Notes under the pieces: generated by a model
What the model was told of the DNA's origin: nothing
The model's database searches: none
What the model saw: only the letters and a program-made list of their open reading frames with translations
Position numbers and translations under genes: made by a program
Source of the DNA: Candidatus Gastranaerophilales bacterium
GTDB taxonomy: Bacteria; Cyanobacteriota; Vampirovibrionia; Gastranaerophilales; Gastranaerophilaceae
DNA length: 64,000 nt
Direction: 5' to 3'
Assembly (NCBI GenBank): GCA_944325145.1
Contig: CALYDL010000003.1
Coordinates: 30,559-94,558 of the forward strand
Shown: in pieces, positions 11,842-49,192 of the stretch
Numbering within the stretch: the first letter of the stretch is position 1
How the letters are laid out: every line of letters begins with the position of its first letter

Positions 11842-12226
11842 AGCCAGAGTGAAGGGCAAAATGATGAATTTTGCCCGAAACTGTTGAATTGCGACGTAGG
11901 ATAATCAAAGCTTGTGAGCGACAACGCTAGTGAAAGCGAACAAAAGCTTTGATACCCACAGGAGCAAAAAAGCATAAAGCCGTGTGTGTAGCCGTTAAAA
12001 ATGGCAAGACGTTATCGTCTTGGCATTTTAGGCGAAACCGTACGATGCCGCTGTTATGACGAAGTGAGCAAATGCGAACGAAGGAATGAACAAATCTTAG
12101 TAAAAATAAGAAGCGGTGCGACTTTGTCGCATAAGCTCTATTTTTACTGATTTGACAGGCGGAAAAAAGCATAAAACCAGAGCGAAGCTCAATGCGTTGA
12201 GCATTGAGCACAGCTATTGAATGTAC
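11836..12226 (+). repeat. modular hairpin-repeat array A
   Basis: Starts AGCGTAAAGCCAGAG overlapping the stop at 11839-11841. Contains hairpin 11854-11876, the core CTGTTGAAT..GACGTAGGATAAT..ATACCCACAGGAGC (11881-11965), a long hairpin module (12083-12163) and a further partial unit (12168-12226). Confidence 0.9.
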
Positions 12227-25844: not shown

Positions 25845-26048
25845 GCGTAAGCCAGAGCGAAGCTCAATGCGTTGAGCATTGAGCGCAGCTGTTGAATGGC
25901 GACGTAGGATAATCAAAGCTTGCGAACGACAACGCTAGTGGAAGTGAGCAAAAGCTTTGATACCCACAGGAGCAAAAAAGCGTAAGCCAGAGTGTAGGCA
26001 GGAGTGTTGAACTCCTGCCGAAACTGTTGATAGCCGCCGTTAAAAAAT
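25845..26048 (+). repeat. modular hairpin-repeat array B
   Basis: GCGTAAGCCAGAGCG starts 6 nt after the glk stop. Contains hairpin 25862-25884, core to 25973 and a second unit with hairpin 25997-26019. Confidence 0.9.
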
Positions 26049-26088: not shown

Positions 26089-26101
26089 AATGAAAGGATA
26101 A
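26089..26101. repeat. 13-nt box AATGAAAGGATAA (copy a)
   Basis: On the minus strand it reads TTATCCTTTCATT, 2-3 nt after the stop of pilin 26104..26832. It is the inverted partner of the RBS box at 26837-26848. Confidence 0.7.
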
Positions 26102-26103
26102 TT

Positions 26104-26832
26104 CTATTTCTTAGCCTGAGCCTGATACATCGCTCTTTGCGCTGCAACGCCATAAGGAATTGCAGCTTTTTCTGTAATCATTATAGAAAAAATATCTGTC
26201 AATTTTGTCCCCAAGGGGTCAGCTTGTTTGTAATAGTTGTCAATGGCGCAATCATATGATTTGCAACTTGCATTTTGGGGTGACGGTTTTCTGTCACCGT
26301 TAACATCAACCATAATTATACAAGGTGGTTTTGTTGTGCCATCGGGGTTATTGTTTAATCCATATGATCCACAATAGCAAGGCGTTCCGCCTTCTGCATA
26401 AGTTTTTGTAGTAATAGTGCACAAAGAAATTGCAGGGTTTTCATACAATGGAAAAGATTTTGTATAATGAGGCCCCGACCAATTCCAAAATTCAAAACGC
26501 ATTCCATCCGTAGTATAAAATGCACTATTTCTCCTTTGTCCTTTTGAATCATATGAAATAAATTGCTCAGTCATATGGGGAACAACGCGAGAAACGCTCA
26601 TATGGCGCATTAAAAAAGCCATTAAATCTGCATTATCATAAGGAGATTCGCCATCAATTGCCATATTCATTGTAATGGCACTGTTAAGCACGCTTACTGC
26701 TTTTCTTAATCCTGTTTTAAATTCTTGTTGTTGAGAATTACTGATTACAGATGGTATAGATATTGCTGCAACAACACCAATAATTGCAAGCGTGATAAGC
26801 ACTTCTGCCAGTGTAAAACCTCTTTTTTTCAT
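26104..26832 (-). CDS. type IV pilin-like protein (prepilin N-terminal cleavage/methylation domain), paralog 1
   Basis: 242 aa. MKKRG|FTLAEVLITLAIIGVVAAISIPS, conserved CGSYGLNNNP..PPCIIMVDVNGDRKP and C-terminal AIPYGVAAQRAMYQAQ. Confidence 0.85.
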   Translation of the reverse strand: MKKRGFTLAEVLITLAIIGVVAAISIPSVISNSQQQEFKTGLRKAVSVLNSAITMNMAIDGESPYDNADLMAFLMRHMSVSRVVPHMTEQFISYDSKGQRRNSAFYTTDGMRFEFWNWSGPHYTKSFPLYENPAISLCTITTKTYAEGGTPCYCGSYGLNNNPDGTTKPPCIIMVDVNGDRKPSPQNASCKSYDCAIDNYYKQADPLGTKLTDIFSIMITEKAAIPYGVAAQRAMYQAQAKK

Positions 26833-26919: not shown

Positions 26920-27213
26920 TACTTTTAAAATCATCTGTCTCTACCGAAAGGTGAAGTGGAGGGGCGAGAGTGACCTTTTTTGGGTTTAACATATCACTTT
27001 TAAAATTAATCTTCTTAATTAATAACGCAGCCCCGACTCTGAACAACTTAGGGGACAGATGATTTTAAAAGAAAAGATTAAACTTATTCATTAAGCCTTG
27101 TTTTCTTTTCTTTTTGGTTCGTTTTTCTTTTCTTTGATAGGCGTATGAAAAAAGAAAAGAAAAATGAACGAAAGGAAAAAAATACCTTTCAATAAAAGTT
27201 GGTTTTAAAAGTA
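26920..27213. promoter_or_regulatory. pilin-upstream segment S (locus 1), inverted relative to its homolog at locus 2
   Basis: Plus-strand sequence is homologous to plus-strand 47895-48148, although this pilin gene is on the minus strand. Outer 11-bp IR TACTTTTAAAA (26920-26930) / TTTTAAAAGTA (27203-27213). Inner perfect 18-bp IR 26922-26939 / 27054-27071. Confidence 0.8.
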
Positions 27214-27224
27214 CGAGCTACTTT

Positions 27225-27415
27225 CAAACGCAACAAAATATTCATTATGTTGTAATGGGCTGAAAAAGCTTGAATTAATTGAATGAAAGAAAGTTAAAAA
27301 TATAAAAATAAATAAAAAACCAAACCTTGAAGAAAGGTTTAAAGAATGGTATTATAAAGAAAAGAAAACAAAATGCACCAAAATGAATATTATGGTGCAT
27401 TTTTATTTATTAAAA
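27225..27415. promoter_or_regulatory. conserved far-upstream block X of pilin locus 1
   Basis: Aligns by eye to the reverse complement of 47690-47875, so it has the same orientation relative to each pilin gene. Confidence 0.7.
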
Positions 27416-27439
27416 AACCGCCTTTTTAGGCGGTTTTTA
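27411..27439 (-). terminator. intrinsic terminator of recA
   Basis: AAAAACCGCCTAAAAAGGCGGTTTTTT on the minus strand, directly after the recA stop. Confidence 0.75.
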
Positions 27440-36577: not shown

Positions 36578-36774
36578 CCTAAAATTTTCCCGTTCGGTAA
36601 AATTATAACCTTTTTTAACATTAAAATCAACAAATTTTCCCGTTCGGGAAATTTTACCACTTTTTAACCCCAAAAATAATAAAAAATTTCCCGCTTTTGG
36701 AAAATTCCTTCAATTGTCTTTTAAATAAAGCTTTCCAGCCCCATTTTATATGCCCGAATTTTGCTATTTTATAA
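36578..36774 (+). repeat. right direct repeat with three palindromic boxes
   Basis: TTTTCCCGTTCGGTAAAA at 36585-36602, TTTCCCGTTCGGGAAA at 36636-36651, TTTCCCGCTTTTGGAAAA at 36687-36704. Same tail as the left repeat. Lies between divergent hipB and the recombinase gene. Confidence 0.9.
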
Positions 36775-36809: not shown

Positions 36810-37349
36810 ATGACAACAGTTGAACCCATCAGAAATTTATCCGACCTGAAAAAGGTTGAATTTTTGCTTGAAAAAAATAAAAGAAATTTGCTGCTTTTCA
36901 CTCTTGGAATTAACTCCGGCCTTAGAATTTCAGACATTTTAGCTTTAAATGTTCAAGATGTGAAAGACAAAAAATTTATTCAAATAACAGAAAAAAAGAC
37001 AGGCAAATTCAAAAAAATTCCAATAAATTCAAAATTAAGACCAATGATTTTTGAATTTACCAAAAACAAAAGCCCAAATTCACCCTTGTTTGAAACCGTT
37101 TTTAAAAACAGGCTGGATAGATTTGCTGCTTATGAAATAATAAAAACTGCCTGCAAAAAAGCAGGAATTGAAGGCAAAATAGGCACGCACACTTTAAGAA
37201 AAACTTTTGGCTACCACCATTATAAAAAGTTTAAAGATGTTGCGATATTGCAAAAAATTTTCAACCATTCAAGCCCTTCAATCACTCTAAGATACATTGG
37301 AATTGAACAAGATGAAATTTTTGAAAGCTACGAAAATTTTATTTTGTAA
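36810..37349 (+). CDS. small tyrosine recombinase, catalytic domain only (similar in size to FimB/FimE-type invertases)
   Basis: 179 aa. GLRISD (Arg), HTLRKTFGYH (His-x-x-Arg), NHSSPSITLRYIG (His, Tyr). Confidence 0.8.
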   Translation: MTTVEPIRNLSDLKKVEFLLEKNKRNLLLFTLGINSGLRISDILALNVQDVKDKKFIQITEKKTGKFKKIPINSKLRPMIFEFTKNKSPNSPLFETVFKNRLDRFAAYEIIKTACKKAGIEGKIGTHTLRKTFGYHHYKKFKDVAILQKIFNHSSPSITLRYIGIEQDEIFESYENFIL

Positions 37350-37620
37350 AAAATAAAAAAACTAAACTACATAACATTTTTTAAACACCACATAATGTTT
37401 AAAATGTTATATAGTAACTGTTTAATAATATCATAAATAATATAATACTGGAATTTTCTTATTTATATATTTATATTCTTTCAAATTTCTAAAATAAAAA
37501 ATGTTGTGAACTTAGAAAAATTATTTTCTTTTTAGTCCTGAAACTCTTTAAAAATGGGCGTGTTCCTCTATCACCACATTTTAAACAAAATGTTGTGTTT
37601 ATTTTAAAAAGGAGTATATT

Positions 37621-40235: not shown

Positions 40236-41754
<1,519 letters not shown>

Positions 41755-42040: not shown

Positions 42041-42169
42041 GCGTAAGCCGGTGCTGATATGAGCCGTGTTGAACGGCGAATGAAGCACTACGATGGCGAC
42101 GTAGGATAATTGAACCTTGCGAACGACAGCGAATGCGAAGTGAGCAAAAGGTGAAATACCCACAGGAGC
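42041..42169 (+). repeat. diverged copy (E) of the hairpin-repeat core inside the 23S leader
   Basis: GCGTAAGCCGG..hairpin GCCGT-GTTGA-ACGGC (42063-42077)..GGCGACGTAGGATAAT..GCGAAC..GTGAGC..ATACCCACAGGAGC. Confidence 0.85.
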
Positions 42170-42187
42170 CATAAAAGGTTTACGACA

Positions 42188-45699: not shown

Positions 45700-46072
45700 A
45701 AAAGTTCAAACGGTTCAACACCTAATTTATCTGCTTGTTTTGCCTCTGTTAATTCTGAAGTATTTGATATTGATGAAAACCAAACAGTTACTGTTTGTGG
45801 CGGCTGTGGTTCATATGGAATGAAGCATAATCCAAATAGTACAAATAAAGTTCCTTGTGCAATTATAGTTGATGTAAATGGTGACAGAAAGCCTACACCA
45901 CAATTTGCTTGTGCAACTGAAGAAGAATGTGGAAGTAATAGTTTTAAATATTTTTCACCTGATATTAAAACTAAAAAAAATCCATGATATTTTTACGATT
46001 TTAATCACTGAAGATAGGGCAATTCCCTATGGCGTTGCAGCGCAAAAAGCTATGTATCAAGCACAGAAATAG
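45700..46072 (+). pseudogene. 5'-truncated, frameshifted pilin paralog
   Basis: Encodes ..VTVCGGCGSYGMKHNPNSTNKVPCAIIVDVNGDRKPTP.., then stops after an A8 run (45973-45980). The +1 frame continues DIFTILITEDRAIPYGVAAQKAMYQAQK*. No N-terminal prepilin segment. 5' boundary approximate. Confidence 0.8.
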
Positions 46073-47281: not shown

Positions 47282-47620
47282 GCGTAAGCCAGAGCGAAGC
47301 TCAATGCGTTGAGCATTGAGTGCAGCTGTTGAATGGCGACGTAGGATAATCAAAGCTTGTGAGCAAGAACGCAAGTGAAAGCGAACAAAAGCTTTGATAC
47401 CCACAGGAGCAAAATAAAAGGTGTGTGAAGTTTTTAAAGTGTGATGAACACTTTAAAAACGAAACCGTTCCAAACCGCCGTTATGAAGCGGAGTTGAAAA
47501 CGAAGCGGAATGAACAAATCTTAGTAAAAATAAGAAGCGGTGCGACTTTGTCGCATAAGCTCTATTTTTACTGATTTGACAGGCGGAAGAAAGAAAGCAT
47601 AAAGCCAGATTGGAAATAAT
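47282..47620 (+). repeat. modular hairpin-repeat array C
   Basis: GCGTAAGCCAGAGCG starts 2 nt after the pilin stop. Contains hairpin 47299-47321, core to 47410, hairpin with TGATGAA loop at about 47431-47459, and the long hairpin module 47507-47587. Confidence 0.9.
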
Positions 47621-47635
47621 TTTATCCTTTCATTT
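47621..47635. repeat. box TTTATCCTTTCATTT (copy c)
   Basis: Complement of the pilin RBS box. Sits between array C and the terminator. Confidence 0.7.
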
Positions 47636-47640
47636 ATAAA

Positions 47641-47675
47641 AGCTCAAAGAATTATTCTTTGAGCTTATTTTTTTT
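47641..47675 (+). terminator. intrinsic terminator
   Basis: AGCTCAAAG-AATTATT-CTTTGAGCT followed by TATTTTTTTT. Confidence 0.75.
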
Positions 47676-47689
47676 ACCCATAAAAAATG

Positions 47690-47875
47690 CCCCATAATGT
47701 TCATTATGTTGCATTCAAGTTCTATAACCTTATATTATCATTATTTTAACCTTTGTTCAAGACTTGTTTTTTTATTATTTTTTATATTTTTCATTTTCTT
47801 TCATTCAATAATATCAACATTTTCTACCCCAACGCAACAAATTGAACATTTTGTTGCGTTTAAAAATTAATCGCA
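47690..47875. promoter_or_regulatory. conserved far-upstream block X of pilin locus 2
   Basis: Reverse complement aligns by eye to 27225-27415. Confidence 0.7.
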
Positions 47876-47894: not shown

Positions 47895-48148
47895 CTTTTA
47901 AAATTGTTTACTTTTACTGAAAGGCGAGGCGTCGGGGCGGGAGTGACCTTTATAGAGAATAAGCAATATTCTTTTAAAATCTAATTTTCTTAATTAATAA
48001 CGAAGCCCCGACTCTGAGCAACTTAAGGAGTAAACAATTTTAAAAGAAAAGATTAAACTTATTCATTTAAGCCAACGTTTCTTTCTTTTCCTGCCTATTT
48101 TCTTTCTTTGCGTGCGGCGTTTGAGCCAAAGAAAGAAAATAGGCAAAG
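47895..48148. promoter_or_regulatory. pilin-upstream segment S (locus 2)
   Basis: A perfect 18-bp IR (47895-47912 / 48029-48046) encloses a 116-nt core. It is followed by conserved GAAAAGATTAAACTTATTCATTTAAGCC and a long polypyrimidine/polypurine hairpin (about 48078-48148). Confidence 0.8.
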
Positions 48149-48159
48149 AGCAATTAAAT

Positions 48160-48173
48160 AATGAAAGGATAAA
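48160..48173. repeat. box AATGAAAGGATAAA (copy d), the RBS region of pilin paralog 3
   Basis: Immediately upstream of ATG 48176. Inverted partner of copies c and e. Confidence 0.7.
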
Positions 48174-48175
48174 TT

Positions 48176-48907
48176 ATGAAAAGATTTTATGGGTTTACAT
48201 TAGCGGAAGTGCTTATCACGCTTGCTATCATTGGCGTAGTTGCCGCAATTTCTATTCCAAGTGTTATTTCAAACTCTCAACAACAAGAATTTAAAACAGG
48301 CTTAAGAAAAGCAGTTTCTGTTTTAAATAGTGCCATAACTATGAATATGGCAATAGATGGCGAAACACCATATGATAATAAAGATTTATTTGGATATTTA
48401 ACAAGACATATGAGCACCTTGAAAGCTCCTGCAACAATTGATTTTGCTTATTATTATAAGTCTCATGACGGCAGCGTGACTGTTGGCGGACATAATTATG
48501 GTTTTTATACAACTGATGGTATTAGATTTGAGTATTATGGTTCTGCAAAAAATACCAATTTCCCTGGGCCAAAACTTCATGAAAGCGGTGTTAGGTCGTG
48601 TGTAAATAATGCTGATGGTTTTTGCGGCGGTTGTGGGTCATATGGCCTCAATCATAATCCCAATGGTACAACTAAACCCCCATGCGCTATTTTAGTTGAT
48701 GTAAATGGCGACAAAAAACCATATCCGGGCAATGTAAATTGCAAGTGGGCAGATGGTGTGAAATGTTTTGGTAAATATAATGTATTAAAAGGCCCGCTTC
48801 CGGGTGAAAAGAAAATTAAAGATATTTTTACAATTTTAATCACAGATGAAAAAGCCATTCCCTATGGCGTAACTGCGCAAAAGGCAATGTATCAGGCACA
48901 GAAGTAA
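48176..48907 (+). CDS. type IV pilin-like protein, paralog 3
   Basis: 243 aa. MKRFYG|FTLAEVLITLAIIGVVAAISIPS, CGGCGSYGLNHNPNGTTKPPC, C-terminal AIPYGVTAQKAMYQAQK. Confidence 0.85.
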   Translation: MKRFYGFTLAEVLITLAIIGVVAAISIPSVISNSQQQEFKTGLRKAVSVLNSAITMNMAIDGETPYDNKDLFGYLTRHMSTLKAPATIDFAYYYKSHDGSVTVGGHNYGFYTTDGIRFEYYGSAKNTNFPGPKLHESGVRSCVNNADGFCGGCGSYGLNHNPNGTTKPPCAILVDVNGDKKPYPGNVNCKWADGVKCFGKYNVLKGPLPGEKKIKDIFTILITDEKAIPYGVTAQKAMYQAQK

Positions 48908-48908
48908 T

Positions 48909-49135
48909 GCGTAAGCCAGAGCGAAGCTCAATGCGTTGAGCATTGAGCGCAGCTGTTGAATGGCGACGTAGGATAATCAAAGCTTGTGAGCAAGAACGCA
49001 AGTGAAAGCGAACAAAAGCTTTGATACCCACAGGAGCAAAATAAAAGGTGTGTGAAATTTTTAAAGTGTGATGAACACTTTAAAAATGAAACCGTTCCAA
49101 GCTGCCGTTATGAAGCGAAGTTGAAAACGAAGGAA
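48909..49135 (+). repeat. modular hairpin-repeat array D
   Basis: GCGTAAGCCAGAGCG starts 2 nt after the pilin stop. Contains hairpin 48926-48948 and core to about 49037. Same as array C but lacks the long hairpin module. Confidence 0.9.
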
Positions 49136-49143
49136 AAAACAAA

Positions 49144-49157
49144 TTTATCCTTTCATT
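49144..49157. repeat. box TTTATCCTTTCATT (copy e)
   Basis: Between array D and the terminator. A degenerate further copy, TATCTTTTCATTC, is at 49261-49273. Confidence 0.7.
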
Positions 49158-49162
49158 AAATA

Positions 49163-49192
49163 AGCTCATCATTTGATGGGCTTTGCTTTTTT
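49163..49192 (+). terminator. intrinsic terminator
   Basis: AGCTCATC-ATTT-GATGGGCT followed by TTGCTTTTTT. Confidence 0.65.

Follow-up and report, generated by a model that had tools for sequence, protein, structure and literature searches.

The Gastranaerophilales are uncultured, non-photosynthetic gut relatives of the cyanobacteria, and a full-text search of the literature found nothing on pilin switches in Melainabacteria or on surface variation in Gastranaerophilales. The stretch of DNA considered here (64,000 nucleotides, hereafter the window; 35% G+C overall) comes from a chicken-gut branch of this group, among the relatives of Ca. Galligastranaerophilus, and carries an rRNA operon, housekeeping genes, three full type IV pilin genes and one pilin gene fragment. 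At two of the pilin loci, designated 1 and 3, a cassette composed of an inverted-repeat element (E), a linker (M) and a second stem (hp2) lies between an upstream module (U) and the pilin ribosome-binding site; such cassettes span 260-330 bp. The features of the two loci, with positions in the window, are as follows.

26104-26832, minus strand: type IV pilin gene of locus 1 (242 aa), relative to which the cassette is inverted
26920-26930, plus strand: cassette boundary on the pilin side at locus 1, TACTTTTAAAA, pairing with 27203-27213 and overlapping the left arm of E
26922-27071, plus strand: E of locus 1, with an S-type core of 114 nt and arms CTTTTAAAATCATCTGTC (26922-26939) and GACAGATGATTTTAAAAG (27054-27071), 18/18 complementary
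27072-27180, plus strand: linker M (27072-27105) and hp2 (27106-27135 / 27151-27180; 30 nt, 83% complementary) of locus 1
27203-27213, plus strand: cassette boundary on the U side at locus 1, TTTTAAAAGTA; in L019 and L038 the homologous repeats at the boundaries measure 16-17 bp
27222-27404, minus strand: module U of locus 1, with P1 at 27372-27404 and P2 at 27224-27256
47683-47865, plus strand: module U of locus 3, with P1 at 47684-47716, P2 at 47829-47863, a -10-like TATTATCAT and an anti-Shine-Dalgarno-like CTTTCATT
47895-47912, plus strand: left arm of E at locus 3, CTTTTAAAATTGTTTACT, consisting of C, TTTTAAAA and TTGTTTACT; 18/18 complementary to 48029-48046
47913-48028, plus strand: S-type core of E at locus 3 (116 nt), with a G+C-rich 5' block, an A+T-rich middle and a conserved 3' block
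48029-48046, plus strand: right arm of E at locus 3, AGTAAACAATTTTAAAAG, 18/18 complementary to the left arm
48047-48091, plus strand: linker M of locus 3 (AAAAGATTAAACTTATTCATTTAAGCC...), which follows the right arm of E in constant relative orientation
48092-48145, plus strand: hp2 of locus 3, a perfect pyrimidine/purine stem of 19 bp that encloses a 16-nt loop and immediately precedes the ribosome-binding site
48176-48907, plus strand: type IV pilin gene of locus 3 (243 aa, N_methyl domain), relative to which the cassette is direct

An initial annotation of this DNA had described E as a pair of perfect 18-bp inverted repeats enclosing a conserved core of roughly 115 nt, and the description was largely borne out: both arm pairs are complementary at all 18 positions, and they enclose 116 nt at locus 3 and 114 nt at locus 1. 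The inner 9 bp of the arms had been said to differ completely between the loci, but in fact they differ at six of nine positions, all by transitions; as had been recognized, both arms changed together, with six pairs altered on both sides at locus 3 and the pairing still perfect. Two conserved blocks and a variable middle are indeed present in both cores, and the reported richness of the blocks in G+C was also confirmed, the first 36 nt of the core having 58-64% G+C, the middle 16-19% and the last 36 nt 44-47%, compared with the 35% of the window. The first block is found at both loci but does not start alike, beginning with CTGAAAGG at one and CCGAAAGG at the other. At locus 3 this 5' block has GAAAGG, the variable middle holds an internal TTTTAAAA, and the 3' block ends in GACTCTGAGCAACTTAAGG. 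When the whole 64-kb window was scanned for perfect inverted repeats of at least 18 nt with partners within 1 kb, only three pairs were recovered, namely the two arm pairs of E and the stem of hp2 (48092-48110/48127-48145). The core motif AGCCCCGACTCTGA occurs twice in the window, at the two E loci, against a chance expectation of 0.1.

Look-ups of exact pilin, recA and recombinase proteins in public assemblies yielded 16 distinct alleles of E from at least six chromosomal contexts. Three types of core can be distinguished among these alleles. The S-type, of about 115 nt, carries the G+C-rich blocks; in the M-type the center is swapped for an unrelated sequence and the G-rich block is absent; and the L-type corresponds to the M-type with a 130-nt insertion that is closed by its own 9-bp helix. 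Every type shares the arms, the first ~22 nt of the core (TTTACCGAAAGGTGA...) and its final ~20 nt (GACTCTGAACAACTKAGGGG). Scans of larger collections relied on a strict pattern that represents the S-type only, with M- and L-type cores invisible to it. Among GTDB species representatives this pattern gave one true match, on a contig of Ca. Galligastranaerophilus intestinigallinarum (L002), and one chance match, this contig being the sole relative when one genome per GTDB species is considered. The JGI metagenomes gave one true match (L006) and three chance matches in high-G+C DNA, and viral contigs gave none; a 17-mer of the arm had 113 single matches among the viral contigs and no inverted pairs.

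The arm type TCATCTGTC/GACAGATGA is present in 15 of the 16 alleles and at all of the at least six loci, while the type with TTGTTTACT is confined to the window locus 3 allele, of which identical copies exist in L017 and L018. Complementarity is 18/18 in 14 alleles and 17/18 in the remaining two. Inverted cassettes in L036, L052 and L167 likewise have the 9-mer TTGTTTACT next to the TTTTAAAA of their U-side boundary, as does L019 with a single change; at this boundary the 9-mer has drifted freely (TCAACTTGT, TTGTTTACT, CCAACTTTT), and the arms of E stay mutually matched. The core is likewise conserved, with a mean pairwise identity of 88.7% as compared with 78.6% for U and 83.4% for the first 120 nt of the pilin gene, and this excess over both U and the start of the gene indicates that E is under constraint. 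Diversity in the S-type alignment is low (mean column identity of 93%), and the last 45 nt of the core reach a mean identity of 96% across nine alleles. Pairing alone leaves part of the constraint unexplained, specifically that on the last 45 nt and on the invariant outer CTTTTAAAA.

Self-comparison of the window indicated that E does not stand by itself. Between locus 1 and locus 3, the 5' ends of the pilin genes and the approximately 180 bp of U match in the same sense, but the segment from E through hp2 matches inverted; the joint inversion of E, M and hp2 at locus 1 implies that E belongs to a larger cassette. Both orientations of this cassette recur at single loci in front of the same pilin protein. 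At the recA locus it is inverted in the window, L007, L012 and L013 and direct in L008, L010, L034 and L035; at the P0030 locus it is inverted in L019 and L020 and direct in L021. Flanking the inverted cassettes are inverted repeats 11-17 bp long; the copy next to U has the form CAACAAGCC-TTTTAAAA, and the copy next to the pilin gene, which overlaps one arm of E, has the form TTTTAAAA-GGCTTGTTG. Direct cassettes have a left joint exactly as predicted for an inversion, CAACAAGCC-TTTTAAAA-TCATCTGTC, but all five direct alleles are without the predicted right joint, some 55-105 nt having gone between hp2 and the ribosome-binding site, with end points that differ between two lineages of hp2. No contig contained a complete flipped cassette, not even the short ones that stop shortly past the pilin-side boundary, and within the cassette the orientation of the E core relative to M is identical in all 16 distinct alleles, as judged from assembled consensus sequences.

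There is also reassortment between loci, involving U, E, hp2 and the pilin reading frame. At the recA locus of L034, for example, a U like that of window locus 3 is found together with TCATCTGTC arms and an hp2 like that of locus 1; given such reassortment, the swapping of entire leaders by homologous recombination is an alternative to an inversion at the locus itself. For hp2 there are two arm sequences, both of which pair, and L008 carries a 78-nt self-folding insertion in this module. At the pilin locus of L030, U is joined straight to the ribosome-binding site with no cassette between them, which identifies the cassette as an add-on between switch and gene.

The window further contains a recombinase gene and a DNA inversion element at a polysaccharide locus:

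36810-37349, plus strand: gene for a small tyrosine recombinase of 179 aa that comprises the catalytic domain only (PF00589, E = 1.4e-24)
37382-37601, plus strand: verified inverton with a 168-bp segment between 26-nt inverted repeats (37382-37407 / 37576-37601), upstream of a Stealth-family gene

In a comparison of ten contigs with an identical recombinase (assembled consensus sequences, with one metagenome flipped), the interior of the inverton is exactly reversed at 100% identity in contig L184 (~2040-2330), and the other nine have the window orientation. This reversal marks the polysaccharide-locus element as a genuine inverton. The recombinase gene is invariably followed directly by a polysaccharide locus, which is of the Stealth or the GT2 type, and the gene product, which in NCBIfam returns Xer-like and weak DNA-invertase matches that all fall under the cut-off, is a candidate for the invertase of the lineage's invertons. 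Three palindromes resembling TTTTCCCGTTCGGGAAA lie at 36585-36700, between a divergent helix-turn-helix gene and the recombinase gene, and look like putative operators controlling the recombinase.

Module U is related to this inverton. P1 and P2 are palindromes of 27-31 nt that are mutually inverted (24/31 and 22/27); P1 matches the polysaccharide-locus inverton repeats at 20 of 26 positions, and the interiors are co-linear by eye. Judged from sequence, U is a paralogue of the verified inverton and is the likelier on/off switch at the pilin loci, presumably as an invertible promoter of the inverton's family; among about 15 alleles of U, none was flipped. E does not conform to this pattern. Its arms have nothing but TTTAAAAT in common with the verified inverton's repeats (TAAACACCACATAATGTTTAAAATGT), which constitute a different sequence family, and although the 18-bp inverted repeats of E flank a core of 114-116 bp, that core is flipped in none of the 16 alleles. 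These data also bear on the two readings of E offered in the initial annotation, the second of which held that the arms are locus-specific recombination sites that keep two switches from cross-recombining. That reading is not supported: related genomes have TCATCTGTC arms at no fewer than six chromosomal loci, and their presence in 15 of 16 alleles means that the arms are not locus-specific; the alternative 9-mer TTGTTTACT is found at cassette boundaries elsewhere as well; and the switch-type repeats of these loci are P1 and P2, within U.

According to the other reading, the arms form a long stem that closes a structured leader or small RNA domain. Among the 12 S-type alleles, six pairs of the closing stem are changed on both sides, all by transitions and all in the window locus 3 allele, a number of double changes reached in none of 500 shuffles. 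The six compensatory pairs are nevertheless a single event in one lineage, and since TTGTTTACT already stands beside the TTTTAAAA of other cassettes, DNA exchange could have supplied the alternative arm. Folding favors the plus strand, on which alone three additional G-U pairs lengthen the closing stem. Predicted energies are -51.5 and -50.8 kcal/mol for the plus strand and -41.7 and -42.1 kcal/mol for the minus strand, and for the long form -89.4 vs -71.6 kcal/mol; the advantage of the plus strand thus amounts to 9-18 kcal/mol, with Z-scores of -4.3 to -6.1. The internal helices show no covariation among the 12 S-type alleles, the eight-pair internal helix GUCGGGGC/GCCCCGAC is broken in seven of them, and the locus 3 allele has a disrupted GAAA hairpin. 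Rfam has no match to E, whether the window is searched at the gathering score or three leader variants at permissive E-values, and returned only rRNA together with chance matches of microRNA hairpins to hp2 at permissive E-values. Moreover, since the cassette can face either way with respect to the pilin gene, the same strand cannot be in the mRNA everywhere, and the better-folding plus strand would be antisense in most loci. In favor of a stem-closed domain is also the tolerance of the core to a replaced center and to a self-closing insertion of 130 nt. The reading of E as a stem-closed RNA domain is better supported than that of locus-specific arms, for the closing stem only.

Several other functions for E and its surroundings were considered and rejected. 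A scan for intrinsic terminators at E or hp2 found just the terminator of the upstream gene (47640-47666) and a hairpin at 27413-27438. A pseudoknot between GGGGC..GAGU and GCCCC..ACUC would involve columns that are all invariant in the S-type, and the motif is missing from the M-type; a G-quadruplex would require more G-tracts than are present, and the M-type cores have none of these tracts. Small reading frames spanning the right arm and M, whichever strand is read, are not conserved, with no start codon at locus 3 and a frameshift in L169. Masking of the ribosome-binding site according to orientation is not indicated by the predicted unpaired probabilities, which overlap between direct and inverted leaders, and searches of the window for targets complementary to the constant core ends returned only same-sense similarity in pilin reading frames and a resemblance, at 12 of 15 positions, of the 5' hairpin of E, UACCGAAAGGUGAAG (26942-26956), to helix 45 at the 3' end of the 16S rRNA, UACCGGAAGGUGUGG (41723-41737), a similarity that is non-significant by a shuffle control. 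A retron non-coding RNA was discarded as well: E has pilin, recA, a ROK-family gene and rRNA as its neighbors, and no reverse transcriptase is present among the reading frames of the window.

Taking these features together, our preferred explanation, which we hold tentatively and with rather less than even confidence, is that selection maintains E as a hairpin of the pilin leader RNA, with the perfect stem as its essential feature and an action exerted once transcription has started, and that E is not the crossover site of the phase switch. E lies between the conserved -10-like TATTATCAT and the ribosome-binding site, and transcripts starting in U would run on through the cassette. Once transcribed, E would fold into an 18-21-bp stem closing a modular core, and the resulting hairpin may serve, e.g., as a double-strand-specific processing element, a stability element or an insulating element. 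It may also separate the anti-Shine-Dalgarno (T)CCTTTCATT of U from the ribosome-binding site AATGAAAGGA, the two being predicted to pair. The arms would be kept by selection for pairing, serving neither as phase-switch crossover sites nor as locus-specific barriers, and the cassette may have been turned round in evolution at the repeats that contain TTTTAAAA, one of which overlaps an arm of E. What leads to the hairpin interpretation is the combination of pairing kept through sequence change, a replaceable center, a core that does not flip and separate repeats for the switch. Three points chiefly weaken it: the cassette occurs in two orientations, the compensatory change is a one-time event, and the sequence conservation of the core ends is not explained by it.

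The alternative to be taken most seriously, though we consider it unlikely, is a second layer of DNA inversion nested in the leader. In this scheme the TTTTAAAA-centered sequences are recombinase sites and the orientation of the cassette sets pilin expression; the cassette would flip between a site CAACAAGCC-TTTTAAAA bordering U and a site TTTTAAAA-GGCTTGTTG bordering the pilin gene, the latter doubling as an E arm, and the other E arm would represent a third site, the perfect repeat being kept for the sake of recombination. Such a scheme would account for the two orientations seen with the same pilin protein at the recA and P0030 loci, for the 11-17-bp inverted repeats bounding inverted cassettes, for the predicted left joint of direct cassettes and for the sharing of the alternative arm 9-mer with the boundary site. 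In addition, the active tyrosine-recombinase inverton of the lineage has a core, TGTTTAAAATGT, that resembles TTTTAAAAT. Yet no exact flip was found and the right joint is missing in five of five direct alleles, the E core is unflipped relative to M throughout the 16 alleles, and the arms of the verified inverton belong to a different sequence family. The inner 9-mers of the two arm types differ at six of nine positions, which is hard to square with sequence-specific binding, and TTTTAAAA is not rare in this genome (44 copies vs ~36 expected). The reassortment of modules, finally, means that differences in orientation may reflect homologous exchange of whole leaders.

A more elaborate version of this proposal, which we regard as distinctly improbable, is that two stacked DNA switches set pilin expression, one being U with its P1/P2 repeats and the other a leader cassette that inverts independently at TTTTAAAA-centered sites. 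If true, the E arm would be at once a recombination site and half of the RNA hairpin that reads out orientation, each locus would have four states, allowing combinatorial surface variation across the pilin loci, and direct alleles without one boundary repeat would represent naturally locked variants.

We also consider it improbable that E is a MITE-like palindromic insertion, selfish or neutral, that has spread with the pilin 5' region through duplication and conversion and has no regulatory role, the arms then being terminal inverted repeats and the flanking TTTTAAAA a target duplication. The element is indeed small, A+T-rich and hairpin-rich with terminal inverted repeats, it occurs in both orientations, the leaders of this lineage gather other G+C-rich self-folding insertions, and the pilin locus of L030 has no cassette; however, all copies are bound to pilin leaders, including the two matches from the collection scans, and none is found elsewhere in the 64-kb window. 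Empty sites, in which TTTTAAAA alone would separate the left and right flanks, were not seen, no transposase is associated with E, and the core, especially its last 45 nt, is better conserved than the promoter module or the start of the pilin coding sequence; the flanking TTTTAAAA, being palindromic, does not allow a target duplication to be distinguished from a repeat. Least probable of all is a promoter inside E, which would make the cassette a classical invertible promoter and the conserved 3' block the 5' end of its transcript: a scan does report TAGAGA-16-TAAAAT in the variable middle, directed toward M (47953-47980), TGAATA-17-TAAAAT, from the M-side arm into the core, can be read by eye in all alleles but two (with a spacer of 16/17), and a variable spacer leading into a conserved 3' block and M would be consistent with a promoter and its downstream 5' UTR, but promoter-like matches number two against 3.1 expected in shuffled sequence, the -10 of the first candidate loses its final T in four of 12 S-type alleles (TAAAAA or TAAAAC), and the -35 of the second fits at only three of six positions.

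The pilin loci of this lineage are mosaic, as illustrated by the pilin gene fragment at 45820-46072 of the window and by a recA locus that is without any pilin gene in L033 (2660-2855), and identical pilin proteins stand behind different leaders (L046/L047), suggesting frequent exchange among pilin loci. G+C-rich self-folding insertions are found in the leaders, including those of 130 nt in E and 78 nt in hp2 (L008 ~2615-2745 and ~2830-2910) and one of about 230 nt between duplicated ribosome-binding modules in L167 (~965-1190); the insertions of L008 and L167 share short motifs and have no Rfam match. The ribosome-binding module AATGAAAGGATAA (48154-48175) recurs reverse-complemented after each pilin gene and before the terminator (49142-49163, 47621-47634 and ~26090-26103), and again inside U near 47795-47805; these copies could pair as RNA with the ribosome-binding site or could form an inverted repeat bracketing each pilin gene. 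Also following each pilin gene is a G+C-rich repeat of ~90-140 nt (47301-47440, 48928-49067 and 25864-25977), further copies of which are intergenic at ~11.9 kb (11881-11969 and 12189-12223) and just upstream of the 23S rRNA gene (42093-42179).

Comparisons with known systems help to place these elements. In gut bacteria, invertible promoters with several targets are represented by the capsule promoters of Bacteroides and by fimS of Escherichia coli with its recombinases FimB and FimE. The short tyrosine recombinase of the window is the size of FimB/FimE, a 168-bp segment has been seen both ways, and paralogous modules stand before pilin genes; this likeness fits U and the polysaccharide-locus inverton, which are new members of the tyrosine-recombinase invertons with several targets, but not E, whose arms are of another family and whose core of 114-116 bp was never seen flipped. 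Closer to the cassette are cwpV and flgB of Clostridioides difficile, where switches bounded by inverted repeats lie within the 5' leaders of genes for surface structures and the recombinase is encoded elsewhere. In these systems as in the cassette, the segment is located between promoter and coding sequence, and orientation could act after initiation. The cassette differs, however, in showing no exact flip, in direct alleles that have lost one boundary repeat, and in having two long hairpins, no evident orientation-specific terminator and a separate promoter of the inverton type upstream.

RNase III sites in phage and bacterial leaders are long double-stranded hairpins for processing or stability, and E resembles them in its perfect 18-21-bp stem within a predicted 5' leader. 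If pairing mattered more than sequence, as at such sites, both the tolerance of either orientation and the replaceable center would be explained; the core ends and the outer 9 bp of the arms are, however, conserved in sequence beyond what a simple need for double-strandedness would call for. E and its cassette resemble both leader switches and double-stranded leader hairpins without satisfying the definition of either. The pilin loci of Neisseria, finally, have a G-quadruplex upstream of pilE and a Sma/Cla repeat downstream. The loci described here similarly include multiple pilin paralogues with conserved ends and conserved non-coding elements on both sides, and their leaders and reading frames reassort; E, by contrast, has no run of four G-tracts, and its M-type core lacks the G-rich block altogether, so that a role of E in starting recombination, by analogy with Neisseria, would be pure conjecture.

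The window thus brings together an active inverton, paralogous promoter modules at pilin genes and an additional conserved two-hairpin cassette that matches no described RNA family. Should E prove to be a leader RNA device, it would constitute a new regulatory module coupled to phase-variable promoters; should it instead prove to be a second recombination layer, these pilin loci would offer a compact example of stacked switches.
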